Positions 228 through 28,384 of a DNA stretch of 64,000 nucleotides are shown here, one piece after another. Location: positions 25,747 to 89,746 of the forward strand of contig JAJRVJ010000005.1 of assembly GCA_024277435.1 (NCBI GenBank), given 5' to 3'. Position numbers and translations under genes: made by a program. This DNA comes from Patescibacteria group bacterium (GTDB lineage: Bacteria; Patescibacteriota; Patescibacteriia; UBA9570). Numbering within the stretch: position 1 is the stretch's first letter; the number at the start of each line of letters is the position of its first letter. The notes under the pieces are model-generated. The model did not search any database, was not told the DNA's origin, and saw only the letters and a list, made by a program, of their open reading frames with translations.

Positions 228-764
228 TATAGGAATACGCTATCGCATGATACTACTTGGGGGTATTGCAAGCCTCGTTATTATTGTAAGCATTAGTGCA
301 ATAATTATTCCTGGTCAGGCCGCGGTACGGGAAAAGAAAATTTCAATTCAAGAACTACAACAATCACTTGCTCTCGAAGAATCAAGTACAACAAATCTTA
401 TTATCGCAAAACGTCGCCTTGAGAACTAGAAGAAACCGAAGAGCTATTTTTACAGGCTTTTGTACCAATTAATGATCCTTTAGTGCTAGTAACAGCCATT
501 GAAAAAATTGCCGAGGACCAGGGACTAGATGTTGATATTAAAGTATCTGAACCGAGCGCAACTGATAAAAATGATGAGATACAAAAAGCTCCGATTACGC
601 TACGCTACCAAAGTGATCTTGAAAATAGTTTAGAGTTTATTAATGACCTACAACAACTACCTATGCATTTTGAAATTCACAACTTACATCTCAATGTTGG
701 CCTACCTAGCGGAGATGATATTCTGATTGTAACATCTATTGAAGCAGTAACGTATTGGAAATAA
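205..764 (+). CDS. PilO-like type IV pilus assembly protein: N-terminal TM helix, coiled coil, then a C-terminal domain. It is interrupted by a frameshift near 420-430 (ORFs 190..429 and 483..764).
   Basis: The first ORF ends ...IIAKRRLEN* (TAG 427-429). The other frame, opening after TGA 420-422, reads ELEETEELFLQAFVPINDPLVLVTAIEK... and continues into ORF 483..764. A 1-nt insertion would join them into one ~185-aa protein with PilO-like architecture. Confidence 0.4.
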
Positions 765-766
765 TT

Positions 767-1033
767 ATGCCACTACAACTATTAAAAAAATATTCCGCGC
801 CCGTTATTACACTCTGTATTGTTGTATACGGTGCATATATCGGCCTTACTTTATACAATGATGTATACGGCCCATTATTTATAGAAGATTCAACACAATC
901 TACTTCAACTAAATTTAAGATTCCTGAAAAACAAATTACAGAAATATCTGATCAAATTATTGAACGCAAAGAAAACAATCTTGATACAAATGTAAAGACG
1001 AATCCCTTTAATACTCAACACTCGCTACCATAA
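767..1033 (+). CDS. small single-pass membrane protein; possible pilus assembly accessory (PilP-like?)
   Basis: ORF MPLQLLKKYSAPVITLCIVVYGAYIGLTLY... has a hydrophobic helix near the N-terminus; assignment from context only. Confidence 0.3.
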   Translation: MPLQLLKKYSAPVITLCIVVYGAYIGLTLYNDVYGPLFIEDSTQSTSTKFKIPEKQITEISDQIIERKENNLDTNVKTNPFNTQHSLP

Positions 1034-1036
1034 GAT

Positions 1037-3607
1037 TTATTTAGAAAACACAACTTGATCATTGACAAAATCAACTTTCATAGTATCTCCATCATGAATA
1101 CTACCTTCAATAATTTCTAACGATAATTTATCGAGAATAACTTTTTGAATAACTCTCTGCAATGGTCGTGCTCCAAATTGCTGATCAAACCCAATTGTTG
1201 CCAAATGGCGCTTAACAGCATCAGTTAGCGTAAGGTGTATGTCTCTTTTAGCTAATCGTTTTTGCACGCGAGCAACTTGTAAATCAATAATACTCTCAAT
1301 ATGTTCTGGTTCAAGATGATGAAAAATAATAGAATCATCAATACGATTTAAAAACTCAGGCGGAAACGTTTCTTGCAATACAGTATTCACCGCATCACGC
1401 TGAGCAACAGTATCACCAATATGCTGAGCAATTTGTGTACTACCAAGATTTGATGTCATAATAATTACTGTATTTGTAAAATCAACCGTACGACCCTTAG
1501 AATCAGTTAATCTTCCATCATCTAATACTTGCAATAATATATTCAACACTTCTGGATGTGCTTTTTCAATTTCATCTAATAAAATTACTGTATATGGATA
1601 ACGCCGCACAGCCTCGGTAAGCTGTCCACCTTCTTCATGCCCTACATATCCTGGAGGTGAGCCGATGAGTCGAGCAACAGCGTGCCTCTCCATGTACTCA
1701 CTCATATCGATACGAACCAAGCGTTGTTCATCATCAAATAAAAATTCTGCCAAGGCCTTTGCTAATTCGGTTTTTCCAACTCCGGTGGGGCCTAGAAACA
1801 TAAATGATCCAATTGGGCGTGATTCTTCTTGGATTCCAGCTTTACTACGCCGTATAGCATTCGCCACAGCATGCAATGCTGGCTCCTGACCAATTACTCG
1901 CTCACCTAATAGTTGTTCTAATAGCGCCAACTTCTCTAACTCCTGTACTAACATCTTTGCTACTGGGATATGTGTCCAACGTGATACAATTTGCGCAATA
2001 TCAGTTTCAGTCACTTCCTCCTTTAGGAGGGTCTCATCCTGCTGAATGCTTGCCAAATCCTGCTGAGCCTTGATAATTGTTTTCTCCAATTCAGGTATTT
2101 GACCATACGTAATTTCAGCCACGCGCTCTAAATGACCATCGCGCTCAGCCTGTATTGCCTCTTCTTTGAGTAAATCAATCTCTTTACTCGATTCATTAAT
2201 TTTATCAATATACTTCTTTTCATTCTGCCATTGCAACTCAATATGTGTATATTCCTCACGTAATTCTGCTAACTCTTTTTCAAGATCACGTAATCGCTGT
2301 TTCGATGTTTTGTCTTTTTCTTTACGTAACGCTTCGCGCTCAATTTCTAATTGCCGAATACGACGATCAAATTGATCAATCACTGTAGGCTTACTATCAC
2401 GTTCAATGCGCAATACCGAACATGCCTCATCCATTAAATCAATTGCCTTATCTGGTAAAAAACGATCGGCAATATAACGATCAGATAACGTTACAGCAGC
2501 CACTAAAGCATTATCACGTATCTTCACGCCATGATGCACTTCATACTTCTCCTTAATGCCGCGCAAAATTGAAATAGCATCTTCAACCGACGGCTCCTCA
2601 ATAACGATTGGCTGAAAACGACGCTCCAGCGCAGCATCCTTTTCAATATACGTTCGATACTCACGTATTGTTGTTGCCCCAATGGCTCGTAACGTACCAC
2701 GCGCCAAAGCTGGTTTCAATAAATTACCAGCATCCACTGCACCATCAACTCCACCAGCCCCAACAATAGTATGGAGCTCATCAATAAATAAAATAACCCT
2801 ACCATCAGATGTTTCAATTTCTTGCAATACCGCTTTCAAGCGATCCTCAAATTCACCACGATACTTGCTGCCAGCCAATAGAGCTCCTAAATCGAGTGCT
2901 AACACCAACTTATCACGTAAACTATCCGGAACATCCCCATCAACTATTTTCTTGGCTAAGCCCTCCACAATAGCAGTTTTACCAACTCCTGGCTCTCCAA
3001 CTAATACTGGATTATTTTTCGTGCGGCGCGATACAATTTGCATCACACGACGAATTTCATCATCACGCCCAATGACTGGATCAATCTTTCCAGCTTTTGC
3101 CAGCTCAGTAAAATCAGTTGTATATTTATCAAGTGCCTCATATTTTCCTTCGGGATCTAGATCAGTTACGCGTTGACTACCTCGTACCGCTTGCAATGCC
3201 TGTATAACATCTTCACGTTGTACATTTAAGAGCTTAGCAATAGACTCCTGCTTGAGTAATGCTAATAACAAATGTTCTGTACTAATGTATTCATCACCTA
3301 ATTTACCTGCTTCGGATTCTGCATCTGTAAATACATTCTTTAATTCATTAGTAGCATACGGAGAATCACTAGTGCTGACCTGATGTTGTTTTTGTAATTC
3401 ATCCTGCAATTGTTGCTGAATATCTTCCGTAATAATTTCAAGCCGTTCGAACAACCGCGGCACAATTCCATCCTTCTGCTGAATCAATGAAAATAGCAAG
3501 TGCTGAGGCTGCACCGCTTGATGTTCTAAGGTTCCGGCTAATTGCATAGTAGCTTGGATAGCCTCAGCAGATTTAGTAGTATACTTTGAAAAATTCATAA
3601 TATTCAA
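1037..3607 (-). CDS. clpB: ATP-dependent chaperone ClpB (Hsp100 disaggregase)
   Basis: 856 aa; Clp N-domain repeats; two AAA+ modules ([15 protein letters not shown] / [15 protein letters not shown]); a long coiled-coil M-domain between them; sensor-2 [10 protein letters not shown]. Confidence 0.95.
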
Positions 3608-5913: not shown

Positions 5914-6432
5914 TTATAATTGATAAAGATAAATAGATATACGATCCTCACTGGGTTTATCAACAGTAAGGGGCTCTAGTCCTCGTATAGGAAATGTATA
6001 GGAAATCACCCTTGTACCAGGCGTTGCTTCAGTATACAACTTTTTTACTAATCTGCCTTCAAGCTTTTTTGGCATACCAAATACATAAATAACATCAGCA
6101 CTAGATAAATCTTGTGAAAATAGATTACCAAATACAAATGTAGCATTCTTGGTCCTAGTGAATAATTTACGAGCCACACATACTATGTATAGTGGAAACG
6201 CTAATTCCACACCAACAGCGGTAATATCATACCGTTGAGCAGCAGCTAACACTACCTTTCCATTACCACAACCAAGATCATAAAAACGCTCACCTGACTG
6301 TATATTAGCCAGCGCAAACACTCTATCTAAATCTTTTTTCCACATTGGCACCCATGGAGCCATTGATAATGCAGCAATCGTAAAGCTCAATATGAATAAA
6401 AAAACAATTAAAACAACAACTTGGAGAACCAT
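5914..6432 (-). CDS. class I SAM-dependent methyltransferase with an N-terminal TM helix
   Basis: Motif I FYDLGCGNGKVV; its start overlaps the stop of the upstream Clp-like gene (TAATG). Confidence 0.6.
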   Translation of the reverse strand: MVLQVVVLIVFLFILSFTIAALSMAPWVPMWKKDLDRVFALANIQSGERFYDLGCGNGKVVLAAAQRYDITAVGVELAFPLYIVCVARKLFTRTKNATFVFGNLFSQDLSSADVIYVFGMPKKLEGRLVKKLYTEATPGTRVISYTFPIRGLEPLTVDKPSEDRISIYLYQL

Positions 6433-9209
6433 TAAATTCTTTCGGCCTTAATAACTTCCACCTGGCCACCAGCTTGCAATTCAACAACATCTCTGCGCGA
6501 TAAACGACTCTGTAATAATAATTTTGCAATCGCATCTTGTGCGGTATCTTGTATCAAGCGCCGTAATGGTCGAGCCCCATATATTGGATCATATCCTCGC
6601 TCAGCAAAATCTACCACAGCCTCATCTGTCCAACGTAAGGTAATACCCTTTACTTCCATTTGCTTAGCTAAGCCAGCTAATAATAATTCACACACCTGTT
6701 GCAATTCTTCTTTTGTTAACGGCGTGAATACCACCACATGATCAAACCGATTTAATAACTCAGGACGAAAACTCTGATTGAGTAACCCCTCATTCAATAA
6801 TTGATCTTTAATGCCACCGCTAGTAGCGCCCTTCGCATACAGTTGCTGAATCACATCAGTACCTGCATTAGATGTTGCTACAATCATTGCGTTAGTAAAA
6901 TCTACCGTTCTACCAGTACCATCCGTTAAACGACCATCCTCCATTACCTGTAAAAAGATATTAATAACATCACTATGGGCCTTTTCGATTTCATCTAGTA
7001 ATACAATTCCAAAAGGAGTTTTACGAATAGCTTCAGTTAAATTTCCTTGCTGACCAGGTGCTCCAATTAGTTTCGATAATGAAGCCGGTGTTTGATACTC
7101 ACTCATATCAAAGCGCATCATGTTTGACTCATTACCAAAATACGCTTCCGCGATAGCTTTAGCAGTTTCTGTTTTACCTACACCAGTAGGCCCCAGAAAT
7201 AATAACGAAGCAATTGGACGAGTTGCATCGCGTAAATCTTCACGCGCCCTACGCAACGCCTTACCAATTGCATTAATAGCCTCATGTTGACCAATCACTC
7301 TACGATGCAATAAATCCTCCATGTTCAACAACTTATCAGCCTCATTTTGAGAAATTGCCGCTACTGCCACATTGGTTTTTTCGGACATAATCTGCTCAAC
7401 CGCCGATTTACGTACTAATTGCTTCACACCATAATGCTCACGCGTATAAATAGCAGCTTCCTCAATAATATCCACCGCCTTAGCTGGAAGATGACGATCT
7501 TGTATATAGCGATCACTCAATACCACAGCTGATTCAAGTGCATCATATGTAAAAAATACTTGGTTCTTTGCCTCAATATAAGGAGCGCGACCCTCAAGCA
7601 CTTTGATAGAATCCTGATGATTGAGTTCTGGAACTTGCACAACTTGAAAACGACGCAAAAATGTTTCTTGATTTTCGATGTGCTTCTGAAATTCAGGTGT
7701 AGTAGTAGTACCTAATACTTTTATGTATCCCTGAGAAATATAGTTCATCAAAATTTTACCAATATCAATACTAGACTGTGTTGATCCAGCCCCTAATAAG
7801 GTATGAATATCTTCAATAGCCCAAATAACATTTCCGGCTAAAATAATATCTTGAATAATCAATTGCATGCGTTGCTCTAAACCTCCAATACCTGATGCTC
7901 CAGCAATAATAGCACCCGGATCGGTAACTACTAAGCGCTTATCCTGTAACTGCGCCGGCACATCCTCGGAGGTCATTAAATTCGCAATGCCTTGCAAAAT
8001 TGTAGTTTTACCAACGCCTGAAGGGCCAACTAACATAACGCTACTATGACCCTCTTGCAACACACGAAATGCTTCATTAATTTCTTTCTCTCTACCAATT
8101 GGGGCCATAAATGCATTATTTTTTGCCATCAATGTAAGATCTTGCGAAACAGCGTCAAGATTCTTAGTAGGACGAGCTGTCATAGCCCGATTCATTACCG
8201 TTTTTGGCTTACCACGTGATAAGCGCTTACGACGATGCTCTTTATCCATCAAAGCCGTTACCAAATTACTCCAATGTACTAAATTACGAATCTTCTGCAT
8301 ATCCACATCTCTATCAAATAAAGCATCTTGAATATATTGATCTGCTAAAATTGATCCCACCATTACTTCAACCAAATCTACCGCCGGTTGCTCTTGATAA
8401 CGGGCCTCAGCATAGGCATACATAAGGGCCTTGCGCACCTCTGCGCCAAAATCTGGTGAATGTGTAAATTGATCTAGTTGATTTTCACGGTCGGCAATCC
8501 TCTGTATAGCTGCAACGAGATCTTGCGAGTTTATTTCCACACGATAGAACATTGATGCCACAGCTTCCTGTTCCATCAACGCTAAAAACAAATGACTAGC
8601 CCTCACCTCAGCATGCTTCAACTTAATTGCCAATTGATATGCGTCATCCAATACATTAAGCGCTCGGGTTTTAAAATAGTGTGATACATCAATTTTTTTA
8701 TGATTATCATAAGCACTCCAATACTCCCAACTGTTCATTTCATCAGTGAGGATTTCATCTGCAAAATGATTTGGTTCCGTAATCTCTGGTATTTGCTCAA
8801 GTACACGTTCTATCCGATAATACGCAAATAAATCCGCTAATACTGATAGCCAAAATATCAATAATTCACTCGATCGGTGAGTAAAGAAATCAACAAACGA
8901 GGCTCCAGCTTCATTTAATTCAACTACCTGAAGTACCATTGCCACAAAGCCACCGATACCAATAATTAATAATACTGAATTGATAAACCAATTCACTACT
9001 CGCTCCATCTTTTTTTCTAAGAGAGCAGCTGGGCTAATTTCATGACCCCAATACAATACGTCATTTTGAAAAAAACCATACACACTCTGCTTGTTGTGAC
9101 ACATCGAACATGTCACATGCTCACCAGATGCGGTAAGCGCATAGCCAAACCCATGACATTGTGGGCATTCTAAAAACGATGCGTTATATTGATCCTTCCC
9201 TATGTCCAT
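6432..9209 (-). CDS. atypical Clp/Hsp100-family AAA+ ATPase with an N-terminal zinc ribbon and one TM helix (ClpA/ClpC-like double ring, no M-domain)
   Basis: CPQC...CSMC zinc ribbon; TM helix WFINSVLLIIGIGGFVAMVL; Clp-N-like region; Walker A in D1 (GPSGVGKTT) and D2 ([12 protein letters not shown]); sensor-2 GARPLRRLIQ; short D1-D2 linker; no I/L-G-F/L ClpP loop visible. Confidence 0.85.
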   Translation of the reverse strand: MDIGKDQYNASFLECPQCHGFGYALTASGEHVTCSMCHNKQSVYGFFQNDVLYWGHEISPAALLEKKMERVVNWFINSVLLIIGIGGFVAMVLQVVELNEAGASFVDFFTHRSSELLIFWLSVLADLFAYYRIERVLEQIPEITEPNHFADEILTDEMNSWEYWSAYDNHKKIDVSHYFKTRALNVLDDAYQLAIKLKHAEVRASHLFLALMEQEAVASMFYRVEINSQDLVAAIQRIADRENQLDQFTHSPDFGAEVRKALMYAYAEARYQEQPAVDLVEVMVGSILADQYIQDALFDRDVDMQKIRNLVHWSNLVTALMDKEHRRKRLSRGKPKTVMNRAMTARPTKNLDAVSQDLTLMAKNNAFMAPIGREKEINEAFRVLQEGHSSVMLVGPSGVGKTTILQGIANLMTSEDVPAQLQDKRLVVTDPGAIIAGASGIGGLEQRMQLIIQDIILAGNVIWAIEDIHTLLGAGSTQSSIDIGKILMNYISQGYIKVLGTTTTPEFQKHIENQETFLRRFQVVQVPELNHQDSIKVLEGRAPYIEAKNQVFFTYDALESAVVLSDRYIQDRHLPAKAVDIIEEAAIYTREHYGVKQLVRKSAVEQIMSEKTNVAVAAISQNEADKLLNMEDLLHRRVIGQHEAINAIGKALRRAREDLRDATRPIASLLFLGPTGVGKTETAKAIAEAYFGNESNMMRFDMSEYQTPASLSKLIGAPGQQGNLTEAIRKTPFGIVLLDEIEKAHSDVINIFLQVMEDGRLTDGTGRTVDFTNAMIVATSNAGTDVIQQLYAKGATSGGIKDQLLNEGLLNQSFRPELLNRFDHVVVFTPLTKEELQQVCELLLAGLAKQMEVKGITLRWTDEAVVDFAERGYDPIYGARPLRRLIQDTAQDAIAKLLLQSRLSRRDVVELQAGGQVEVIKAERI

Positions 9210-9592
9210 AATTCAAATATATTCACAGGCATTAAACCAATTTGATAGAGAATATTATATAACACAAATACCGGAACAATCAGCCATAGTAACAATATTA
9301 ATATCAATACGGTCATATACGCGACAGCAATGATCATTAATAGCGAAAAATGCACTACGCGCACTGGAAAACTAATTAATCTACTCACAATATCATTAAG
9401 ACCATACATCGGAGTAAACAAAAACCGCGCAAGAATCTTTAAATTCAGCGTTCGCACTAAATCTTTAGCTTGATAGCGTAAAAGACCAATAATTTTTAGT
9501 GTTCCGCGATAATACCACCACGGAAGAAAATAGACTACGCTCCAAAGAATGTCTATAAACAAAAATTTAAGAGCACTTTTCACAGTCTGCAT
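9200..9592 (-). CDS. hypothetical membrane protein
   Basis: 130-aa ORF with 3-4 predicted TM helices. Confidence 0.4.
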   Translation of the reverse strand: MQTVKSALKFLFIDILWSVVYFLPWWYYRGTLKIIGLLRYQAKDLVRTLNLKILARFLFTPMYGLNDIVSRLISFPVRVVHFSLLMIIAVAYMTVLILILLLWLIVPVFVLYNILYQIGLMPVNIFELWT

Positions 9593-9636: not shown

Positions 9637-10011
9637 TTATGTAAAATGCAAATATGGACCCATTGCCATAAGTAACACTAAAGCCCCTATAATAAAAATT
9701 GAAAATAACCAATTCCAACCGAAAAATAAAAGTAGTGCCAATCCAATAGCGGCGATACCTATGCAAAATATCCAGGCAATAATTTCTCGCTTAAAAATAT
9801 ACTTAAACATTAACGCCAATATCATCAGTACAGCTGCTACACCCAATAGAACATATATAGGCATGAATGAACGGTCTCCTGCGAATGGGGTTGTGTATTG
9901 CAAGCCATAGGCTAATGCTCCCATGGAAACTGTAAGCACCAATGAGATTATCCAGCCGGTATAGAGTGTTCCCATATTTCTATGGTCAATCAATGAATCT
10001 TTTTTTGCCAT
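9637..10011 (-). CDS. hypothetical membrane protein
   Basis: 124-aa ORF, strongly hydrophobic, 4 TM helices. Confidence 0.4.
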   Translation of the reverse strand: MAKKDSLIDHRNMGTLYTGWIISLVLTVSMGALAYGLQYTTPFAGDRSFMPIYVLLGVAAVLMILALMFKYIFKREIIAWIFCIGIAAIGLALLLFFGWNWLFSIFIIGALVLLMAMGPYLHFT

Positions 10012-10436: not shown

Positions 10437-10766
10437 CTAACAACTGTAGACGTTTGAAAGAAAGTAAATCATCCAACTAGTAGCTATTGCCACAGCAATA
10501 CTTACAATAACCAACACAGAAATATGCTTCCTATGCATTTCATATAAATGATACGCCTCTAACACTAGGCCAACAAAAATTAAACCCACTCCCAAATACC
10601 CCATCCGAGCCGCACTATACAATATCTCTGTAGCACACACTTGTGTAAGTACTGGAAACAATAACATGCCAAATATAACGCTTACTAAGGCAATGCCTAA
10701 TACTACAACCGTTACTGGTAATACTGGATCTAATTTATACTTACTTTTGTGAGCTGATGTTTTCAT
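10437..10766 (-). CDS. hypothetical membrane protein
   Basis: 109 aa, 3 TM helices. Confidence 0.4.
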   Translation of the reverse strand: MKTSAHKSKYKLDPVLPVTVVVLGIALVSVIFGMLLFPVLTQVCATEILYSAARMGYLGVGLIFVGLVLEAYHLYEMHRKHISVLVIVSIAVAIATSWMIYFLSNVYSC

Positions 10767-13824: not shown

Positions 13825-15930
13825 CTAGTTAGCGTTTTTCTTCACAACAACACCATCGTCTGTTGTGCCTGGATCATTAGTAAGATTTGAAGTTACCTGA
13901 CCAGTTTGCGCCTGCACAGTTTCTTCGCTCGAGGTATCGACTGCAGTAAGAATAGATTCACTTAGGAGTACAAGTAATTTACCTTTATCTTCCTTCGTAG
14001 GCGTTACAGAAACTTCAAAATCAGCAAACTTGCTATCGCCATCTTTCACCGATCGTAAATTCAACGCAACTGTATTATTCGAGGAAGAATAACTAACCCT
14101 ATCATCACTAGAGCCTTCATACGTAACATTATCCAGTAATGTAGTTTGTACTTGCAAGTCCTCCATATTTCCACCGCTTGACGCAACTGTCCAACGAATA
14201 ACATATGTTGTAGTACTACCTACTTTTGGCGGTAACGGCCCATCACCTAGCTTTGTAAGATCGTCATCATAATATCGCGCTTCACTCTCAAGACTTACAT
14301 TACCCTGTAGTTGAGTTTCTGCTTCTACGGAAGTATCAAACTCAATAGACGATCCACCCACCTCAGCAGATGCCACGCTAAATGTAGAGGTAATTTTAGA
14401 AACATCATTTGGTAATACGTCCTTCACGGTGGTAATATATTCAATATCAATAGATTCACCGGCTTCTAGAATTTCAATTGTATCCAACTCAACCTCGCTA
14501 GTATCAACAGCTTTGCCAGAAAACTGTAACTGCAACTGAATTTGTTCAATATCAACTTCAGATGAATTCTCAATACTTAATGTAAGTGGCAACACATCAC
14601 CAGCGCTAGCAAATTGTGGAGCCTCTATAGTAAGTTGCAATTCTGGATTCACAATAAGAATGTCATCACTAGCTTCGGCTTGGATGTTAAAAAATCCATC
14701 CGGTTCTTGAATACCAACCTGTGTAATCATTGTTAACGTTGTTCCTCCATCAGCTGTTACCTCACCCTTTATCTTTACCTTCTCACTAGCTCCAGGAGCT
14801 ATTTCATCAAACAGCCAAGTATGATCACTTTTATCTGCTGTTGGATCAGCTGAGGTTGCGTTAAATCCATCTGGATAATCAATAAATGCCTTAACATTCA
14901 CTAGTGATAACTCTTAATTATTTGTAAATGAATAGATATACTGAATCTCTTCACCGGAACGAGCTTGTTCTATAACATTAGTATCAACCTCAATAATAGA
15001 CTCATCTAACACCACGCTAGTATGAGCTGATTCCTGAAAATCAGAACTAAAATTCTCTGGAGTATACGTAAGTAATGCTGTAATCTCCTTCTGGTCATTA
15101 GTCTGCCCTACTAACTGCCCTATAATAACAATAGTTCCTGACGTACCTGGTTGAACACCTGCTATATCCCACTTATTAGTGGTAGCATCTCGTGGTTGCG
15201 GATCGGATGATCGAAAATAAAAACCTTGTGTAAATACCAACTCAAGTGCACCAGAATCAATTGTAGATTGTGTATTATTAGTATATGTAACCGTGAGCTC
15301 TAATTGATCACCAGATGCAAGCCGTTCAACTGTTTCAAGCTCAAGAGTAACTTCTCCGCTCCCAACCTCTGCTCGATTAGGACCAAATACTAAATACCCA
15401 AGCGCAGCAGCTACAAAAGATAACACAACAATAATAACAGTAAATGACGTTAAAATTGTACGAGTATTATTTTTTCGTTCCAAGGTTGTCATATCAACTG
15501 TTTCATCACCCTCTTCATTCTTATAGAGGTCAAAAAAATCATCCTGGATATCTTCGGTGGATTCTTCTTCATCACCCTCATCCTGGTCTTCATCCTCCTC
15601 GGTATCTTCTTCGTCCTCAATTACATCATCTTCATCGGCGCCTTCTGGTTCAGAATCCTCATCAAATTCATCAGTAGTCATTTCTTGATCAAGTCCCTCA
15701 TCTTGTCCCAAAATCTCCTCACTAACCAATTTTTCTTCTGTAACTTCTTCCTCTACTTTAACTGGTTGTTTTGGTTTACGAGTAGATTTCTTTTTAGGCT
15801 TTGCTTTTGTAGCTTTTCTAGTTGTTTTCTTTGTAACTTTACTGGCAGATTTCCTACTAGGTTTTCCGTTAGATACGGATCCTCCTTTGGCGGACTTTCC
15901 AGAATTTTTAGTTGTAGTCTTATTTGGCAT
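13825..15930 (-). CDS. DUF11-repeat cell-surface protein, membrane-anchored, with a Lys-rich then acidic N-terminal tail. One frame, interrupted by a single in-frame TAA at 14914-14916 (ORFs 14914..15930 and 13825..14901).
   Basis: The two ORFs are in the same frame, separated by TAA plus 4 codons (...YSFTNN*ELSLVNVKAFIDYPDGF). The DUF11-like repeat pattern (TNN...NV.V.D.P.G) runs through the stop. The downstream part has no start context or signal peptide of its own. Confidence 0.5.
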
Positions 15931-19925: not shown

Positions 19926-22900
19926 TTATGCTTCCATACGATCTTCAAGAGCGCTACGCATAGCTCCATAATCGTAAGATTTAAACTGTGCACCTCGTGT
20001 TTTTGTAAGGCGCATTGACGCAAGCATAGTTTTTCCGCCTCCCTGCATCTTTGCAGTTATTTGCGCAAGATCTGCAAAACGCGCTAACGTAGCTTCAAGG
20101 TCAAAGTCTGGCTCAACTACTTTCTCAGAATCAAGTAGTGATGCAATAAGCGCTTCAACATCATTCGCATCTAATCCCAAGCCAAATACATCACCAAATT
20201 CTGTCTTGTATGAACCTGGACGCATTAACCTTTCTACCAGAGCTTTATTTGAAGCAACAGCTTGATATAGGCCATACTCGTTAAAACGGAATGCATCGCG
20301 CGCGCGCAATGTACTTGGTGGCAACATGTTCTTAACAGCCTCCTGTACTCGTGCTTCATTTAATTTCCAAGCACCATCCGCATCACCTTCGCCGTCTTGA
20401 TATTCATAAAATCCAACTTGGGTTTGCCATGCCCCCGCACCAGCTTCTCTAGACTGTCGAAACACAGCTTCTATCCTCTCACAATAGCCACCAACTTGCG
20501 CAAGTGCCTCAACTGTTTTCTCTGCTTCACCGCCAGTAGTATTACTAATTACATCTAATACAATCTTCGAAAGATCTGGATACTCCAATAGAGATTCAAC
20601 ATATCTAGTAAGCGTATCAACTTTACCTTGTAAATCCAGAGCCTGTTCTGGCGCCGCCGCATCAACTTCTGCAACATCAATATTAGCCTCGGCAAATTGT
20701 TCGCCAGCCTGTTGTTCATCCGCCCCAACTGGAGGCTTAGCATTAGGATTAAAAATTTCAACACCTTTTATCCCAGCTTGTAAATTACGAATAACAACAG
20801 CCACTTGTTCTGTATTAATTTCTTCTTTCGTACCAGCGCCAATTGCTGACAAGAAAATATTATCTAACCTTTCATTCAAGTCTTTCCGATCCTCCGGTGC
20901 AACTGCAGATACCGCCTCACTTCTGCGTCGTAATCTACCACCACTCTTACCAAGTGCATTGCGCCAATCAGTATTACCACCACGACGTGATTCCATTTTT
21001 CTACGCTTTGCTTCTAACGCACTCAAGAGCTCATTGGCCATTTCCGCTCGTTGCGCAGCTGGAACACTAACAGTAGCCTCACGAAACGCCGACACAAATT
21101 CAGCTCCTACCATGCGCCGTGTAAATTTAACTGCTTCCCGGAAATTACCGATAAATGGAGCGTCAACAATAGCCTGCTCAGCGAACGATCGTAATGCAGC
21201 GGCATCCGGCTGTTTATTTTTTACATATCCAAAATGCGTGGCCAGCCTAATCATACGGGCCTTAAATAATCCAGCTCGGCGCTGCGCAAAAACAGCCATT
21301 TTCTTTGAATAGGGTTTTATTTTTTTCTCATCATCAGTCATTTCAAATTCTGGCCCTAACGGCTCGGCCTCTTCTGCACGATCCAATAACCCTAATAAGG
21401 TATTTTCAATATCACTCAATGAAGCACCGCCACGAGCATTCATAGCAACCACTACCTGATTAGGAACAATTTGATATAGTTCCTGCTGAGTTTTAAATAA
21501 TAATCGATCAATCTGGTTCAATTCAACATTCACACCGTCTTCTTCAATTTTTCGATGAGCTCGCATTCTATCTAAGCGATCCAATTTACGCACATATCCT
21601 GCCGGCTGTCTTCGCAACACAATACCCTCGGTACCTGCAACTGCTGCAACCGCTTCTACTCCCTCAGCAGCTTCCACTGCTTCAATCGCCTTACTACCTT
21701 TTACTAGCTCAACTTCACGCTCATGTGTAAATTCAATCGTTCTACCATTTTTATATTTTGGTGGCTCTCCTACACTGGGCATGTCGGCCCATTCCATTAA
21801 CATATCTTTAATTTGAAAAATATCCATATCAGCAAGTGGTTCTACAGATCTACCTATACCGACTGCTTTATGGGCTTCTTCAAGAAATGTATCAAAGTTT
21901 GGAATACGTCTACGCGCAGCATCAATATCCCGTTCTGTATCAAGATTCAAGCGCTCGGTACCACCAGCAGCATTTGTTACCTTAAGTTCAACGCTACCAA
22001 TAACTGCTCGTTCAGCAACTGCCACTTTTCGCAACACACGTTCGCGATGCTTTTGTTCTCTACTCGGACCATTACGATCGTAAGCTGATACGCGCTCATC
22101 AGTAACACTTTCCCGCATCACTTTCAAATCCTCAATCATCTGATCAATCTCACTTTGTAATTCAGGCACCGGATTACCTTCCGGAGTTAATACCTTCGCA
22201 ACTGCAGATGTTACATCAACTGTTGGAAAGCGCTTATCAGCCTTATTCCAGGTTCCCATTTTTTCAATCCTACTCCTATCATCCATTACATCCTCCAACC
22301 GTGAGCTACGCGCGCGCACCCACTCAGCCACTCCATTATATGCATCCAACTGGGTATTGCGCAGTGTTCCTTCAGCTAATCGAATCATATCCTCAATTGT
22401 GCGCGCACTTTTAACTCTACCACGTTCTTTTTTAACCGAAACAAATGTATCGCTTCCAGTAAGCCACTGCTTACCTGGTTCAGCAGCCATCGCAGCCAAC
22501 TGTTCGCGAGCGGCTGCCACAGCAGCATATCCACGATCTACAAATTGCCCTAAAAGTACTTTAGCAACACCTCTGGCAGCCTCATGTGTTTCAACGCCTT
22601 GCCTACCTTCAGTAAAATATTCCTCTCGCAACAATGCAACCTGTGCTGGTAGTGTACGCTCCTCATATTCACGCTCGTCACCTTCAAGAGCATCTCCAAG
22701 AACATCTACTAATCCTGGACGCAATTTTTTATCATATACTCTTGCAGCACCTCTATTTACCTTTGCTTCACGCTTTGGCTGCTCTCGCTTCCGTTTACGA
22801 GGAGCTCTTTCGGAACGCGGGCTTTGCGCTGTAGCGGCATCTGTTGTAGGTGCAGCATCAGAGCCAAGATCAGCAGCAAAGGCTGCAAGCATATCTGGAT

Positions 22901-22979
22901 CAACGGGTTCTCCAGCCTGCCCTGGTTGCACTACTGGATCTGGATTGGGTTTTCGAGCTCCTGGTTTTGATTCTGGCAT
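19926..22979 (-). CDS. large hypothetical protein (1017 aa), Ala/Arg/Glu-rich, no recognised domain
   Basis: Long uninterrupted ORF; the DNA is GC-richer than its flanks. Composition: Pro/Gly-rich N-terminus, then long helical-looking Ala/Arg/Glu-rich segments. Confidence 0.6.
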   Translation of the reverse strand: MPESKPGARKPNPDPVVQPGQAGEPVDPDMLAAFAADLGSDAAPTTDAATAQSPRSERAPRKRKREQPKREAKVNRGAARVYDKKLRPGLVDVLGDALEGDEREYEERTLPAQVALLREEYFTEGRQGVETHEAARGVAKVLLGQFVDRGYAAVAAAREQLAAMAAEPGKQWLTGSDTFVSVKKERGRVKSARTIEDMIRLAEGTLRNTQLDAYNGVAEWVRARSSRLEDVMDDRSRIEKMGTWNKADKRFPTVDVTSAVAKVLTPEGNPVPELQSEIDQMIEDLKVMRESVTDERVSAYDRNGPSREQKHRERVLRKVAVAERAVIGSVELKVTNAAGGTERLNLDTERDIDAARRRIPNFDTFLEEAHKAVGIGRSVEPLADMDIFQIKDMLMEWADMPSVGEPPKYKNGRTIEFTHEREVELVKGSKAIEAVEAAEGVEAVAAVAGTEGIVLRRQPAGYVRKLDRLDRMRAHRKIEEDGVNVELNQIDRLLFKTQQELYQIVPNQVVVAMNARGGASLSDIENTLLGLLDRAEEAEPLGPEFEMTDDEKKIKPYSKKMAVFAQRRAGLFKARMIRLATHFGYVKNKQPDAAALRSFAEQAIVDAPFIGNFREAVKFTRRMVGAEFVSAFREATVSVPAAQRAEMANELLSALEAKRRKMESRRGGNTDWRNALGKSGGRLRRRSEAVSAVAPEDRKDLNERLDNIFLSAIGAGTKEEINTEQVAVVIRNLQAGIKGVEIFNPNAKPPVGADEQQAGEQFAEANIDVAEVDAAAPEQALDLQGKVDTLTRYVESLLEYPDLSKIVLDVISNTTGGEAEKTVEALAQVGGYCERIEAVFRQSREAGAGAWQTQVGFYEYQDGEGDADGAWKLNEARVQEAVKNMLPPSTLRARDAFRFNEYGLYQAVASNKALVERLMRPGSYKTEFGDVFGLGLDANDVEALIASLLDSEKVVEPDFDLEATLARFADLAQITAKMQGGGKTMLASMRLTKTRGAQFKSYDYGAMRSALEDRMEA

Positions 22980-23194: not shown

Positions 23195-26100
23195 TTAAGT
23201 AAAATCATCTGGATCCCATGCTCCCGCAAGTGGATCATCTTCAGCAATTTCTTCAGGCGCAGTTTCAGGAGCGGCTGACGGGAAACGATCAGGATCAATA
23301 ATTTGTAACCAGGTATCAGGAATTGCTGACTTAATAGCCCCGCGTGTATGCTCAGACCATCCTGCCCATACCATTGCCAACGCATCACGTACGGCGGTAT
23401 CATCAGCTGCAGCGCGTTGTTCAATATATGTTCTAAAATGATCGACATCATCAATGTGCTCTGGACGATACAATTGCTCACCATCAGCAATCTCTTGATC
23501 CCACATCGCAAACATGAAGCGTTCACGATTTTGACCTAGCTGATCCATTGAAATAGGCCCTAATTCGGAAAGTACACTTGAAAATTCAGATTGCCTCCAT
23601 GCCACATCTTCACGTATACCTATGTCACGCTGTCCCACGATGCGACGACGAACACGATCACGTAACCGATCATAATGCCCCTCTGCTTTCGCCCAATCTA
23701 TAAATGCAGTAAGAGCTTCTTCCTGTTCAGAATCTGGGCCTAAAAAAGCATCATACGTATTTCCTACTTGTATCGCCTTCAATAATGCGTCTGTATCCTC
23801 GCTCGTAAGAAATTCTTCTTGAAGCTCTTGTAAGCGTCGAGCAACTTCCTCAGTAAGCTCTGGAGCGCCTGTAGATTCTAGTTCCTCAGGTTGAGCGAAA
23901 GGAAAGTCTTCAGCTGGCGGCGCTTCAGTAAACCATTCATGTGGTATTTCTAGAACGCGTTTAAAATATAAAACCTCTCCTGCATCATCAGAAATTGCAG
24001 CCCAAATACGACGGCGTAATTCTGGTAATTCACCGGCAGATTCTAATTCTCGATAAAATTCCGAAAAGACAGCCACTTCTCTAGATGAAATTGGTGATAA
24101 AATTCCACCTCTCTCATAACTACCTCGTACATTAGTTGCAAAAATAGCTTTCTGACGCTGCTCCAGCTTATCGCTATCAGGAACAACAATATCAGCAACA
24201 AAATCACCCATACCAACAACTCTCCACGCTCGAGTAGTATTTATACCGTTAGAAAGATTATCTTTCACCATTTTTTGAACCCCAGTTCGTAATACATCTA
24301 ATTTACCGTTCTGTTCTGCCCATAAGCGTACTTGCGGCCATACTGCACGATCTTCTTCGTTATTAAAGGGAAACATAATAATACTTCCGCGCTCAAGTTG
24401 GTCAACAATCCTATCAAACGCTTCTCTATATCCTTCGGGAAGGCTTTGGCGTGGATCAGCCTCTGGCACTACAGGCGGCGCCTCTGCTGAAACTTGTTCT
24501 GGTGTTGCAGGAGTAGAAAAATCTGGTGGAGAAGCAGGTCCGCTAGGGGGCGCTGAAAAATCAGGAGGTGAGGTTGGCGCTGATGGCGTACCGAACGTTG
24601 GTGAAGCAACAGGTGTTCCAAAACTAAGTGGAGCAACCGGACCACCTCCTAGTCCACTTAAACCAACTGCGCTAGATGATGCTGAAGGTTTAATAACAAC
24701 CTTCGGAGCTGGTGCTTTAGGGGCGGCTGGCTTAGCTGGAGTTTTTGGTGTTGAAACAGCGGCGGTTGGCACCGAGGTTGTAGTATCAAAAATATCATAT
24801 CCTGCTACAGCATTCGCAACCACTTGACGAATCCTTGCGTTGTTAATACGAGGCACTAACCCGGTTGTTAAAAAACTGGCTGGCGGACCAGATACAGCAG
24901 CATGCTTATCTTCACCCGGCAATACTTCTATTGATCGCACTAACCGCTCCATAGCTGCTAATCCTGCATCACTTGTAAATGCGAATGGTAATGGATAATC
25001 AACTGAGGCATCAGTAACTGCGCCATGGTGACGCAATCGTTCCATAATATACTCACGCACTTTCACATTTGGGAACGCTAAATCAAATCGCACCACTAAT
25101 TCTGCTAAACGAAATAACTCCGTCACGTTTGTAAATTTTTGCATAATATCTGCACGCGCCCCATCAATAATTGCATTACCTGGCTCCACAGCAATAAAGT
25201 CGTTAAACCCATGCTGCATATCAATTAACGAGGTACGTAATCCACGGATATTACTTTGTAACGTACTTACACTTAAATCATTGCCACGATCAATCATTAA
25301 TTGCGAAACCACATCTACTAACGGACCAGGACTAGTAGCATCGGTAGATAAATAATTCTGCAAACCAGTTACCACAGCTGTATCTAATTGATCTGGATAC
25401 GGTGCCACCGTGGATTCTACGCCATTCAAAAATGGCTCGAAAGCACCATCGTACTGATCAGCATCGATATCCTGGTAAAACAAATCTCCCTCACCACCCT
25501 CATACCATTGTCGCGCCTCTATAACTTGCGTAACTATTGTACGAAGATCACGGCGTAATGTAGTTGCACTCTCTAGGAAATCAACACCTATATCACCATT
25601 CGTATTTACAGTTGTCATTACATCTTTCACACGCTCCGTTACACTCTGCTCTGCGGCATGTAAACGAGCATGACGTTGTCGTAATTCTAGCAACATTCCA
25701 GCTGGACGATCTCCTGTGTGTTCCTCTTCAGCAGCAGTTACTTCAGGATGTGAAAAATCACGCCCCTTGATACTATCTGGCACATACATTTCTGGTGAAC
25801 GTGGGGTGCGTCGCGTTTGCAAATTTTCCATGTTATATGGAGTGAGCTCTTCCTCAAGAAATGTACTTACTACAGCCTGACGCAATTCAGTATTTGTACC
25901 CTCCGAAACCTCACCTGCTAATTCACTTACGTTATGCATGATATCTTCTACTGCAAGTGTGTCAGCTAACTGCATTGTCACTTCACCGCCCCTAAAGAAT
26001 ATTTCTGCCAAACGATCGTTATTAATTGCTGAATTTAGACCAATGCTATCATTATACGTATACACGCTTAATTGCGATGCATGATTCAATGCTCCTGGTG

Positions 26101-28384
26101 GTAAATCAAATAACGACTCAGAAAATAACGACTCACTCGCCGTAAATATAGGAGTTCCGTCTGCTGGATTCAGTATTGTTACCATCCCTGTATTTGCATC
26201 AATGGTAATTGAAAAAGTATCTTCACCAATTTGAAATGGTTGTGCACTTCCATCAACAACACTTACCGTATTCGTTGTTTCAATAAGAGCCTCCCCAAGT
26301 GGCACACCATATTCCGTAATATCTATATGGTTTACTGTTTCACCAGTAGCGCTTATAAAATCTATTCTACTTCCATCTGGCGTAGCTTCTATTCCTACAG
26401 TGCGAATATCTACCCCCTCTGGAACCGGAATGATAGCATCTTGCACCATACCATCAGTGGTGTCACTAATAATAATTTCTGTACCACTCGCCGACAATGT
26501 AGCTATTCGATCACCACCAATATCAATCATGGCTGGCGCAGCTCCTTCAGGCCAAGCCGGTGGTGCACTTACTGGTTCAGTGTGCGGGAATGCCGCATCC
26601 AATACTAACGATACGGCTGACGCTGCAGCTCCACCAAGTAACGTGCCCTTGAGAATTTGTGTAAGCTCACCTTTACGAAGTTGTCCCTTAAATTTGCTTT
26701 CAACTTTCTCAATCAATTTCTTCCGTTTCTGATCTTCACGAATCATAGCATCTTGTAATTGTTTACGCGATTCATCTTCAAGCGTATCCATAAATGCAGT
26801 CACTTCAGAAAGCGCTCCCTCTAATTGTTGTGCGAACTGTAAGATAGCTGCGTCACGATTTTGATATCCAAAGCCAATGTAATCCTGCTCCCCACTTTTA
26901 CGTGAACGACGCATGCGCCCATGCGCGTCAGAAATTGTTCCATACAATACTAATACAGTATCATGTAATTCATTTTTTCGTTCGCGTAACTCAATTTCAT
27001 CATTTACAGAGTGTACTCCAAGTGGAGGTGCCTCCCCCTTTTTTCGCGCTTTAGCTTCTTGACTACGCGCTGCCCTCCATTTTTGCTCTGCATTCTTCAC
27101 TTCTTGTTCTGCTTTTTTTACAGCCATAACCTGCGCATCAAGAACTTGCACAATACGCTCAGCGCTGCGTACCACTTCATATTCTTCCTTGCCAACCTTT
27201 ACAGTGTATTCACGTGAACCAATAGCTGCATCTAATCGCTTCCGACGCTTCCGCTTTCGTGAATTCATTACTGCTCGTGCAAAACCAGCTACCGTACCTA
27301 AGCCTGCAGCAATAATTAAGCCAGTACCGCCAGTAAGCGCGCCTACACCCGCTGTAACACCTATTGTAAATTTTGCGCCTCCCCTTATTCCCACTGTCCA
27401 AGCGGTACCAGATGTTACAATGCGTTTCCCCCCATCAATAACTAACTGTAGCGCTGCTGGATAATCTCTATCAACTTCCTTTTCAATTACCTTTGAAGTA
27501 ACTGTGGCCTGCGCAGTTTCGGCTGCTAAATTTACTAGTTGATCTCGCAATAATACAGCCCAATGCTTATGAATAGCGTTTTTAATTTTAAATGCCTTAT
27601 TACCAGACTTCATTTCTGGAGTAGTGAAATCGAGTATCCCAAACGAACCTCCTAAATCGTACTCATTATTGCCGTGAATATTAATATGGCCAATAATCTG
27701 CTGGATACCATTAGTATATTCAGTATGCGCTAATACCTGAGCCACACTTATTTCACCGGCTTGAAATTCAGTAATAATTCGACGTAACTTCTTACCGCCC
27801 ATCTCCATATAATCTTCGAGACGCTTCCTATCAATTGCTCTGGTAATTGCCGATTCCAAAGCGGTATTCATATAACTCGTACGTTGACGAATCTCCGCTT
27901 TTTTCTTCGCTACATCACCAAAGTGCCTACTTTTACCAAAAGCCGAAAACGAAATATCATTCACTCCTAAATCTCTGCCCAACTCTTTCATTGCACCTGC
28001 AGTAAAACGATATAACCAACCAGACTGCGTCATGTTTTCGGCATGAGCATAATCCGATTCTGTTTTAGCTTCTAGTGAAATTTGCACTTCCAAATCACGT
28101 ACGGCATCACGTAGTATTTCGGATGAAATACCATGCTCATTCACTAAACCAGCTAAACGTTCTAATACATAGTCATCATGATATATTCCAGACTCACGAA
28201 ATCTCTTACCAAGCGCCTCACGAATATCATCAGTTTTTACAACTTGTACCTCAGGTACCTCACGAGATCGACGGCTTTTTCGCTGTAAATCAACCTCCCT
28301 TTTACGTACTCGCACATCACGTTCACGCTGTTGAGCACCATGTCTGTGGGTTTGCCGCTTAACTTGTTGTTCAGCTGGTAACAT
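23195..28384 (-). CDS. giant hypothetical protein (1729 aa) with a Gly-zipper TM hairpin, a long Pro/Ala/Ser-rich linker and unknown domains
   Basis: Single ORF. TM-like segment GVTAGVGALTGGTGLIIAAGLGTVAGF followed by RKRKRRKR. Low-complexity PAAPKAPAPK...SPPDFSAPPSGPASPPDF region. Its start lies 2 nt after the stop of the 104-aa ORF. Confidence 0.6.
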   Translation of the reverse strand: MLPAEQQVKRQTHRHGAQQRERDVRVRKREVDLQRKSRRSREVPEVQVVKTDDIREALGKRFRESGIYHDDYVLERLAGLVNEHGISSEILRDAVRDLEVQISLEAKTESDYAHAENMTQSGWLYRFTAGAMKELGRDLGVNDISFSAFGKSRHFGDVAKKKAEIRQRTSYMNTALESAITRAIDRKRLEDYMEMGGKKLRRIITEFQAGEISVAQVLAHTEYTNGIQQIIGHINIHGNNEYDLGGSFGILDFTTPEMKSGNKAFKIKNAIHKHWAVLLRDQLVNLAAETAQATVTSKVIEKEVDRDYPAALQLVIDGGKRIVTSGTAWTVGIRGGAKFTIGVTAGVGALTGGTGLIIAAGLGTVAGFARAVMNSRKRKRRKRLDAAIGSREYTVKVGKEEYEVVRSAERIVQVLDAQVMAVKKAEQEVKNAEQKWRAARSQEAKARKKGEAPPLGVHSVNDEIELRERKNELHDTVLVLYGTISDAHGRMRRSRKSGEQDYIGFGYQNRDAAILQFAQQLEGALSEVTAFMDTLEDESRKQLQDAMIREDQKRKKLIEKVESKFKGQLRKGELTQILKGTLLGGAAASAVSLVLDAAFPHTEPVSAPPAWPEGAAPAMIDIGGDRIATLSASGTEIIISDTTDGMVQDAIIPVPEGVDIRTVGIEATPDGSRIDFISATGETVNHIDITEYGVPLGEALIETTNTVSVVDGSAQPFQIGEDTFSITIDANTGMVTILNPADGTPIFTASESLFSESLFDLPPGALNHASQLSVYTYNDSIGLNSAINNDRLAEIFFRGGEVTMQLADTLAVEDIMHNVSELAGEVSEGTNTELRQAVVSTFLEEELTPYNMENLQTRRTPRSPEMYVPDSIKGRDFSHPEVTAAEEEHTGDRPAGMLLELRQRHARLHAAEQSVTERVKDVMTTVNTNGDIGVDFLESATTLRRDLRTIVTQVIEARQWYEGGEGDLFYQDIDADQYDGAFEPFLNGVESTVAPYPDQLDTAVVTGLQNYLSTDATSPGPLVDVVSQLMIDRGNDLSVSTLQSNIRGLRTSLIDMQHGFNDFIAVEPGNAIIDGARADIMQKFTNVTELFRLAELVVRFDLAFPNVKVREYIMERLRHHGAVTDASVDYPLPFAFTSDAGLAAMERLVRSIEVLPGEDKHAAVSGPPASFLTTGLVPRINNARIRQVVANAVAGYDIFDTTTSVPTAAVSTPKTPAKPAAPKAPAPKVVIKPSASSSAVGLSGLGGGPVAPLSFGTPVASPTFGTPSAPTSPPDFSAPPSGPASPPDFSTPATPEQVSAEAPPVVPEADPRQSLPEGYREAFDRIVDQLERGSIIMFPFNNEEDRAVWPQVRLWAEQNGKLDVLRTGVQKMVKDNLSNGINTTRAWRVVGMGDFVADIVVPDSDKLEQRQKAIFATNVRGSYERGGILSPISSREVAVFSEFYRELESAGELPELRRRIWAAISDDAGEVLYFKRVLEIPHEWFTEAPPAEDFPFAQPEELESTGAPELTEEVARRLQELQEEFLTSEDTDALLKAIQVGNTYDAFLGPDSEQEEALTAFIDWAKAEGHYDRLRDRVRRRIVGQRDIGIREDVAWRQSEFSSVLSELGPISMDQLGQNRERFMFAMWDQEIADGEQLYRPEHIDDVDHFRTYIEQRAAADDTAVRDALAMVWAGWSEHTRGAIKSAIPDTWLQIIDPDRFPSAAPETAPEEIAEDDPLAGAWDPDDFT

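Follow-up and report, generated by a model that had tools for sequence, protein, structure and literature searches.

What would a second double-ring Hsp100 ATPase do at the membrane of a bacterium that already encodes an ordinary ClpB? The question is raised by a stretch of 64,000 nucleotides from the Patescibacteria group bacterium assembly GCA_024277435.1 (contig JAJRVJ010000005.1, positions 25,747 to 89,746), referred to here as the window. The ClpB recognized earlier at 1037..3607 is encoded on the minus strand and passes the TIGR03346 equivalog model (1250 bits, cutoff 1232). The second Hsp100, at 6432..9209 and called the ATPase below, has a cysteine-rich finger and hydrophobic helices in front of its Clp domains, and a small membrane protein, called the partner, is encoded directly upstream. 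The family of the ATPase is a real, conserved and undescribed class of Hsp100. Our assessment leans toward a lineage-specific, ClpP-independent Hsp100 that would remodel its clients at the membrane face and be driven by its second ring alone; we are much surer of the architecture and of the ClpP independence than of the mechanism. No description of the architecture or of the partner family was found in the literature, and one article that mentions Patescibacteria and ClpP (PMC12419801) was set aside as irrelevant to the ATPase. The features of the two genes are as follows.

9200..9592, minus strand: partner, a 130-amino-acid (aa) membrane protein of an unannotated family, directly upstream of the ATPase with a 10-nucleotide (nt) overlap
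6432..9209, minus strand: ATPase, 925 aa
9051..9182, minus strand: putative DnaJ-type Zn finger, residues 10-53 (C15, C18, C34, C37; CPxCxGxG...CxxCxG), followed by an LYWG motif (W54)
8922..8996, minus strand: transmembrane (TM) helix 1, residues 72-96
8817..8870, minus strand: second hydrophobic helix, residues 114-131 (conserved F119, W120, D126, R132)
8313..8675, minus strand: divergent Clp_N-type domain, residues 179-299
8154..8300, minus strand: long helix, residues 304-332, and flexible linker KPKxxMNRAMTAxxTP, residues 334-349, family-specific
7416..8153, minus strand: degenerate AAA+ module D1, residues 353-598, aligned with the genome's ClpB and with S. aureus ClpC
6435..7337, minus strand: AAA+ module D2 and D2-small domain, residues 625-925 (Pfam AAA_2, 4.5e-52; ClpB_D2-small, 1.2e-20)

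The ATPase coding sequence is a single ATG-started open reading frame (ORF) of 925 codons, as given by both the ORF list and the translation. The original prediction had placed it exactly and left the strand to be specified; the plus-strand reading of 6432..9209 is riddled with stops and was dismissed. An identical protein (P0001) is held in a public protein collection, and a search of 5.8 billion proteins returned, among the matches listed, about 120 homologs of 890-940 aa with 99-100% query coverage and 36-70% identity. Two alignments of full-length homologs were made, with 110 and 96 sequences, and an AlphaFold2 (AF2) model built on 96 sequences had a mean predicted local distance difference test score (pLDDT) of 88.4 and a predicted template modelling score of 0.80. 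Nine N-terminal residues (C15, C18, G20, C34, C37, W54 of the LYWG motif, F119, W120 and R132) were conserved in at least 90% of the sequences of these alignments. Because they are conserved in homologs that cover 99-100% of the query, the Zn finger and the TM segment are a genuine part of the protein, and their recurrence in 110 full-length homologs at such levels of identity puts these features far beyond chance. It had been considered that the real start might lie downstream of the TM helix. The start used here is the first possible start codon of the ORF, it overlaps the 3' end of the upstream 130-aa gene by 10 nt (tta-tgg-aca-tag / ATGGACATAG), and the residues that follow it are among those conserved, so the N-terminus belongs to the protein.

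The window ATPase begins MDIGKDQYNASFLECPQCHGFGY...VTCSMCHNK, in other words with the CPQC (15-18) and CSMC (34-37) pairs that had been noted in the sequence, upstream of the hydrophobic helix 72-96. Family statistics, here and for the AAA+ modules below, were taken from 73 species-level relatives that were retrieved independently through the partner gene, and all four finger cysteines were present in 58 of the 73. In the AF2 model residues 10-53 form a small beta-rich domain. Searches with three family members matched Anti-TRAP, DnaJ_CXXCXGXG (PF00684) and BSD2_CRD below the Pfam gathering cutoff (E 1e-4 to 0.1), and the finger is a putative DnaJ-type element that resembles CxxCxGxG at the level of the motif.

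A single TM helix had been predicted behind the finger, and this was revised to two. Only residues 72-96 of the ATPase pass a Kyte-Doolittle threshold of 1.4 in 19-residue windows (up to 2.47), and they lie inside a long AF2 helix, 60-100, which is followed by a short loop and a helix at 114-137, the whole forming a helix hairpin. The second hydrophobic helix, recognized from conservation and from the model, is probably TM helix 2 of this hairpin. Across the 73 members the mean hydropathy is 1.8 for both TM helix 1 and a conserved 16-residue segment at 115-130, and the mean number of lysines plus arginines is 3.3 in the N-terminal flank, 1.4 in the loop and 4.5 in the C-terminal flank. The conserved hydrophobicity and this positive-inside pattern point to an N-in/C-in hairpin with two membrane helices, which would place both the Cys4 finger and the ATPase domains in the cytoplasm.

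The remainder of the protein has the domain set of the class-I Clp/Hsp100 superfamily, in order and above Pfam cutoffs: Clp_N (190-238), AAA_lid_9 (531-598), AAA_2 (664-824) and ClpB_D2-small (831-910). The D1 P-loop is placed near 371-420. Foldseek template modelling scores against ClpC and ClpB cores reached 0.86. The Clp_N match is modest (24.1 bits, cutoff 20.7); the region aligns with the N-domains of ClpC and ClpB, is modelled as a helical domain at 181-299, and includes R223, invariant in the homolog alignment. Between Clp_N and D1 the model has a 29-residue helix (304-332) and a disordered segment (333-348, pLDDT below 50 at 341-343), which is its only part of low confidence. The linker found there has the full form KPKxxMNRAMTAxxTPxLD and is among the best conserved parts of the family (K334 92%, R341 96%, T344 100%, A345 90%, P349 95%, L351 99%); opposite it the ClpB of the same genome has a gap of 9 residues, and the pattern [KR]PK[GST]x[MI][ND]RAM was specific enough to fetch 120 family loci from metagenomes. 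Located at what would be the membrane-facing entrance of D1, it may be where the partner or a client makes contact.

As had been predicted, the coiled-coil M-domain is missing. The ClpA model aligns without interruption (ATPase 184-910 to model positions 6-731 of 734), while the alignments with ClpB and ClpC are each broken in two where the coiled-coil is passed over: ClpB residues 400-528 are unaligned in a BLASTP comparison with the genome's own ClpB, the alignment with S. aureus ClpC skips residues 445-467, its M-domain, and the AF2 model has no coiled-coil insertion. The absence of a ClpP-docking tripeptide was likewise borne out by D2 alignments with ClpC and E. coli ClpA. At the docking position, a helix-loop-helix at 783-812, ClpC has RFAGFGG, E. 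coli ClpA has RKSIGLIH and the ATPase has LYAKGATSG, that is, A-K-G-A-T in the place of the tripeptide. This position varies within the family (KGAT, AGAT, QGVS, LQRA, DSES and others). No clpP or clpS gene was found in the window or in about 165 related loci, and tblastn with E. coli ClpP, ClpS, ClpX and Lon against the window and about 85 loci returned only AAA cross-matches, a survey of local context of about 1 Mb.

The claim that the ATPase falls outside the textbook Hsp100 classes also held, since it scores below every NCBIfam Clp cutoff and lacks the features that define ClpA, ClpB, ClpC, ClpV and ClpE. It scores 575 against a cutoff of 1232 with the ClpB model TIGR03346, and has no M-domain. 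The ClpA model TIGR02639 gives 499 against 993, the IGL loop is absent, and clpS was not found in the window. In the alignment with S. aureus ClpC the short M-domain and the [VA]GF loop are both absent. The ClpV/TssH model TIGR03345 gives 464 against 885, and type VI secretion genes were not among the neighbours. Scores for ClpG/ClpK were about 450 against 1900. FtsH is likewise excluded, as Peptidase_M41 was not matched and the AAA modules are of the Clp clade. A PADLOC search gave only generic AAA_2-domain matches for the ATPase (PDC-M37B, DolB), and an anti-phage defence role was dropped on this outcome and the housekeeping neighbourhood.

The original prediction described two complete AAA+ modules. 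Two modules are present, but neither is complete. In D1 the Walker A motif is intact (GPSGVGKT, 395-402). The pore-1 loop reads ASGIGG (438-443, in AGASGIGGLEQ) where ClpB has SKYRGE, and the Walker B motif reads IEDIH (465-469, in IWAIEDIH) where ClpB and ClpC have IDELH (ILFIDELH). An active AAA+ module has hhhhDE with a catalytic Glu at this place, and DE was found in none of the 73 relatives, in which IED (12), IDN (12), IEN (8), IDD (5) and other variants occur; residue 467 is Asp in 37 of them and Asn in 34. All 73 were likewise without an aromatic residue in the D1 pore loop. The Walker A Lys was kept in 66 relatives and the next Thr/Ser in only 37, and the RR pair of Arg fingers in fewer than 40%. 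Judged by these residues, D1 is a degenerate ring, predicted to bind nucleotide at best.

D2 shows a different pattern. Its Walker A, its Walker B (DE), sensor-1 Asn, Arg finger and sensor-2 (GARPLRR) were 99-100% conserved in the 73 relatives, so that it carries the complete residue set of an active AAA+ module and is the predicted hydrolysis engine. Its pore-1 loop, however, has lost 6 residues, PGYVG among them, and is reduced to APGQQGN (717-723; IGAPG------QQGNLTEA when aligned with ClpB and ClpC). The length of this loop is 13 residues in ClpB and was found to be graded in the family: 7 residues, as in the window, in 22 relatives, 8 in 13, 9 in 9, 10-12 in 11, and 13-14 in 18. PGY or PGF was kept in 15 of the 73, and 55 had no aromatic residue in the loop. 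D2 therefore reads as a conserved engine whose substrate-gripping loop is eroding stepwise across the family, and the shortening from 13 to 7 residues indicates relaxed selection on the loop. The aromatic-hydrophobic-Gly pore-1 loop expected of a processive translocase was found in neither ring of the window protein.

In the mechanism that we favour, the ATPase would assemble as a ClpB/ClpC-like hexamer whose 12 TM helices hold the ring at the cytoplasmic face of the membrane, with the Clp_N/D1 face and the channel entrance toward the bilayer. Nucleotide binding by D1 would serve mainly for assembly or allostery, and D2 would be the sole motor. Such a machine would act as a ClpP-independent, membrane-proximal remodelling or holding chaperone with no protease component, working on a membrane-associated client by ATP-driven clamping and release or by remodelling its conformation, probably without processive threading. 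Classical threading is improbable here because the pore-1 aromatics are lost in both rings and the D2 loop is eroded across the family.

This separates the remodelling mechanism from the unfoldase or extractor that was originally proposed, that is, a membrane-tethered ring that threads membrane or secreted proteins in the manner of FtsH or Msp1 and lacks a protease. Part of that proposal stands, as the membrane anchoring and the loss of the M-domain and ClpP loop agree with it. Anchoring by a TM hairpin is FtsH-like, the D2 motor is fully conserved, Clp_N and the DnaJ-type finger could both seize unfolded segments, and 15 of the 73 relatives keep the PGY-type D2 loop. The threading itself is the doubtful part. 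In characterised Hsp100s (ClpB/Hsp104/ClpA) the D2 pore tyrosine is required for translocation, and this counts against extraction by a protein that has no aromatic residue in either pore-1 loop and from whose D2 ring PGYVG is deleted. With no aromatic pore-1 loop in either ring and no catalytic Glu in D1, canonical hand-over-hand threading or extraction is doubtful, and the wider family points the same way, with D1 aromatics missing throughout, D2 aromatics missing in 55 relatives, and a D2 loop that has been shortened under relaxed selection. We regard the extractor as unlikely.

The partner bears on what else the ATPase might act with. Its C-terminal half is strongly hydrophobic, and it has the invariant motifs FPxWWYxxG, PM[FY]GxxD and SFxxR (invariant residues W25, W26, Y27, G30, P61, M62, S74, R78 and P107). 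Pfam, NCBIfam and PADLOC searches with it were without match. The family has 2309 members at E <=1e-3, all named 'hypothetical' and all from sources labelled Patescibacteria. An AF2 model (pLDDT 90.8) has two helices of about 50 residues with PM[FY]GxxD in the loop between them, and a fold search with this model against the PDB gave nothing significant (best E 2.2).

A partner homolog was found directly upstream of the ATPase, with overlaps of 4-10 nt, in relatives at 59%, 46%, 40% and 39% identity in which the other neighbours differ. Two surveys were used to follow this adjacency. The first started from the partner and used contigs of one genome per species; from 549 relatives 80 loci were kept, giving 85 partner genes when earlier loci and the window were included. 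In 68 of the 85 an ORF with the N-terminal module of the family starts no more than 60 nt downstream, and about 10 more are adjacent if ambiguity of the ORF start is allowed (68-78 of the 81 loci with room). One further locus (L030) also has the ATPase downstream, four partner genes stand at contig ends, and two loci (L061 and L062) have no ATPase gene. The second survey started from the linker motif of the ATPase and used metagenome contigs, and the partner was adjacent upstream in 72 of 74 loci with room. Taken together, the two surveys, run in opposite directions, find the two genes side by side in about 97% of roughly 150 loci. To judge from gene order and overlap, the partner is an obligate operon partner, translationally coupled to the ATPase. 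It would be a stoichiometric membrane subunit that serves as adaptor, regulator or client-delivery factor.

No further gene was conserved across the loci in an all-against-all clustering of neighbourhood ORFs. The small membrane-protein ORFs and the RlmH/SPOUT gene that had been pointed out are indeed present upstream of the ATPase and co-directional, but of these only the 130-aa gene is conserved, and rlmH and the rest are confined to close relatives. Accordingly rlmH and the small membrane ORFs at 9637..10011 and 10437..10766, which are absent near more distant homologs, were rejected as members of the system. The suggested role in a pilus or secretion process was not borne out, as no such link was found. 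Scans for promoters and terminators around the operon gave sites no more numerous than in shuffled sequence.

As far as record names allow, the ATPase family is restricted to Patescibacteria. The named records are from Kerfeld-, Falkow-, Buchanan-, Uhr-, Kuenen-, Magasanik- and Komeilibacteria and from 'Patescibacteria group'. Many records of the pair in metagenome-assembled genomes (L009, L012, L015, L024 and others) are titled 'uncultured Gammaproteobacteria', 'Bdellovibrionales' or 'Acutalibacteraceae', and these titles are probably placeholders, wrong labels or the result of mis-binned contigs.

The only other recurrent neighbour is a Glycos_transf_4 gene, which follows the ATPase in the same orientation in 34-36 of the 78 genome loci; in about 20 of these it is no more than 150 nt away, and often 0-15 nt. 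Of 60 metagenome loci with room, 29 have it. Its best NCBIfam match is ECA_wecA, below the cutoff of that model and of MraY. A WecA/TagO-like polyprenyl-phosphate sugar-phosphate transferase, which would link the ATPase to the initiation of envelope glycopolymers, is the only recurrent candidate for a client or pathway. In one contig (CAYXZR010000015.1; L027:4231-7935, the same ORF as P0281) a 1234-aa ORF joins the C-terminus of the ATPase in-frame to the WecA-like transferase; the first TM helix of the transferase is missing from the fusion, and this copy also has no Zn finger.

When 1.84 billion representatives were searched with a profile of the first 180 residues, 387 proteins were found. 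Alongside those of about 900 aa is a recurring subfamily that ends after the D1 small domain with ...VPYTKILK. Its members are of 583-631 aa (about 600) and keep the Zn finger, the TM hairpin and Clp_N, and they have no D2. They are as follows.

P0276, P0294, P0297-P0299, P0310, P0313, P0315, P0338 and P0357: D1-only proteins
L089:2894-4717 and L090:767-2590: D1-only genes in their loci

D1 is more decayed in this subfamily than in the full-length proteins, with an altered Walker A, a lost Walker B, an 11-residue deletion and no RRFQ. In L089 and L090 a DUF6922 gene stands upstream in the place of the partner, and the Glycos_transf_4 gene is still found downstream. Because the D1-only variant keeps this neighbour, the portion made up of Zn finger, TM hairpin, Clp_N and D1 is suggested to have a function of its own, tied to the transferase.

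These observations allow a more specific form of the non-threading mechanism, which we consider rather improbable. In this form the ATPase and partner would together make up a membrane-embedded Hsp100 machine with about 12 plus 12-18 TM helices and a wide, aromatic-free channel, a new branch of Clp/Hsp100 specific to the candidate phyla radiation (CPR). D2 hydrolysis would then gate or remodel the WecA/TagO-like transferase, or move bulky or folded cargo as Bcs1 does.

A further explanation is that the ATPase is mainly a scaffold or regulator, a largely non-mechanical pseudo-enzyme that together with the partner organises or gates a membrane enzyme, for example the WecA-like transferase, with ATP binding by D2 as a switch in the manner of Torsins. 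The D1-only proteins, whose dead D1 still precedes a WecA-like gene, speak for this, as do the eroded pore loops, the obligate membrane partner and the in-frame fusion. The conservation of the catalytic Glu, sensor-1, Arg finger and sensor-2 of D2, on the other hand, argues for hydrolysis and for work beyond switching, and about half of the loci, the window among them, have no WecA-like neighbour. We consider a pure scaffold improbable and give it little weight.

Several points weigh against the remodelling mechanism that we favour and against its connection to the transferase. The second hydrophobic helix has only 16 residues, a conserved Asp among them, and could be interfacial instead of membrane-spanning. 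The ancestral machine may have threaded substrates, given the relatives that keep a PGY-type D2 loop, and the window protein might still translocate through other loops. The WecA-like gene is found neither in the window nor in about half of the other loci, and its association with the ATPase may be lineage synteny, not function. The fusion is known from a single contig and could be genuine or an assembly artefact.

A ClpB-like disaggregase dedicated to the membrane, working with DnaK/DnaJ and using its own DnaJ-like finger in place of part of their input, is very unlikely. It would agree with the ClpP independence, the ClpB-like docking-loop region and the CxxCxGxG finger, and a canonical ClpB is encoded 2.8 kb away in the window and nearby in two other loci (L008 and L079). 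However, the M-domain, by which DnaK activates ClpB, is missing, as are the required pore-loop tyrosines, and the proximity of ClpB is not conserved across the loci.

An ordinary ClpC/ClpA-type unfoldase that feeds ClpP and is merely localised to the membrane is extremely improbable: the closest solved structures and sequences are indeed ClpC (E = 5e-143; Foldseek), databases name the homologs ClpC or 'ATP-dependent Clp protease ATP-binding subunit', and the match to the ClpA model runs over its whole length, but the protein scores below every equivalog cutoff (about half of the ClpA cutoff, 499 against 993), the I/L/V-G-F/L tripeptide is absent from a loop that varies in the family, the pore tyrosines are missing, D1 is degenerate and, a weak point that concerns local context only, clpP and clpS were not found nearby.

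Comparison with characterised systems helps to place the family. ClpC of Bacillus and Staphylococcus and ClpA of E. coli are the best matches in sequence and fold and have the same order of Clp_N, D1, D2 and D2-small. The short D1-D2 junction of the ATPase is ClpA-like, and the ClpA model aligns in one stretch. Unlike both, the ATPase has no docking tripeptide, no ClpC M-domain and no pore-1 tyrosines, and has ED in the D1 Walker B; it adds a Zn finger and TM hairpin, and has a small membrane partner in place of MecA or ClpS. With ClpB/Hsp104 it shares ClpP independence and a ClpB-like D2 and docking-loop region (over D2 it is 42% identical to the ClpB of the same genome), but it differs in the missing M-domain, the loss of both pore tyrosines, the degenerate D1 and the membrane anchor. 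ClpE of the Firmicutes is also a double-ring Hsp100, and has at its N-terminus a Cys4 element that binds zinc, as the finger of the ATPase is predicted to do. ClpE is soluble, has no Clp_N domain, and has a short M-domain, a ClpP loop and intact pore loops. The finger of the ATPase, in contrast, is putatively DnaJ-type and followed by TM helices, and the ClpE structure in the PDB (29hb) matches only its AAA core.

Outside the Hsp100 proteins, FtsH, Msp1/ATAD1 and Bcs1 are also tied by an N-terminal anchor to the membrane, with the AAA+ ring on its cytoplasmic side. FtsH further resembles the ATPase in that each subunit has two TM helices and in its small membrane partners (HflKC, YccA). These proteins belong to other AAA+ clades and have a single ring, and FtsH carries an M41 protease domain as well as an aromatic pore loop. 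The likeness to FtsH is best described as functional analogy, with no homology beyond the generic AAA fold. Torsins are AAA+ proteins related to Clp D2, are membrane-associated, have no aromatic pore loops and depend on the membrane-protein cofactors LAP1/LULL1. They are eukaryotic, single-ring and luminal, and have no Arg finger of their own, whereas the D2 Arg finger of the ATPase is 100% conserved and the partner is unlike LAP1. Here too the relevant parts are not homologous.

Few protein-remodelling machines are understood as well as the Hsp100/Clp ATPases, of which all characterised classes are soluble and depend on pore-loop tyrosines. The ATPase family is integral to the membrane, and it constitutes a natural experiment in what an Hsp100 ring can do without threading. 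What is new here is the coupled partner gene, the WecA-like gene that follows in about half of the loci, and the D1-only subfamily. The data point to a module for the envelope or for proteostasis that has gone unrecognised and is apparently universal in a large class of uncultivated, ultra-small bacteria, and the automatic annotation 'Clp protease ATP-binding subunit/ClpC' is probably misleading in metabolic and proteostasis reconstructions of CPR genomes.

Other genes adjoin the pair in the window and elsewhere. In the window, 5914..6432 (minus strand) encodes a 172-aa protein that begins with a TM helix and has the fold of a class-I methyltransferase; the start of this gene shares 1 nt, the last base of the ATPase stop codon, with the end of the ATPase gene. 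Its best NCBIfam match is an archaeal protein-lysine N-methyltransferase (54 bits, cutoff 200), and the gene is kept downstream only in close relatives (L003 and L004). On a 1.36-Mb Patescibacteria contig the pair adjoins a divergently oriented gene of 332 aa with AAA and AAA_lid_9, resembling a stand-alone D1 (L007:6433-7431, minus strand). In several genomes (L034:3174-5813, L054:100-2739 and L070:3222-5864) a second Clp ATPase of about 879 aa adjoins the pair, with a KYRG D1 loop and no G[YF]VG.

Elsewhere in the window, two large minus-strand genes, 23195..28384 (1729 aa) and 19926..22979 (1017 aa), had no Pfam match at E <=1e-3. Beside clpB are two short overlapping plus-strand ORFs, 483..764 and 755..1033, the first with a marginal PilO match (23.2 bits, cutoff 22), and these may be a split or decayed pilus-assembly gene. 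Between recO and tgt are two minus-strand genes, 13825..14901 and 14914..15930, with weak DUF11/CARDB/CLIPPER-type repeats, whose products are probably located at the cell surface, and repeat-protein genes at the same place are syntenic in a close relative (L003:3744-5525).

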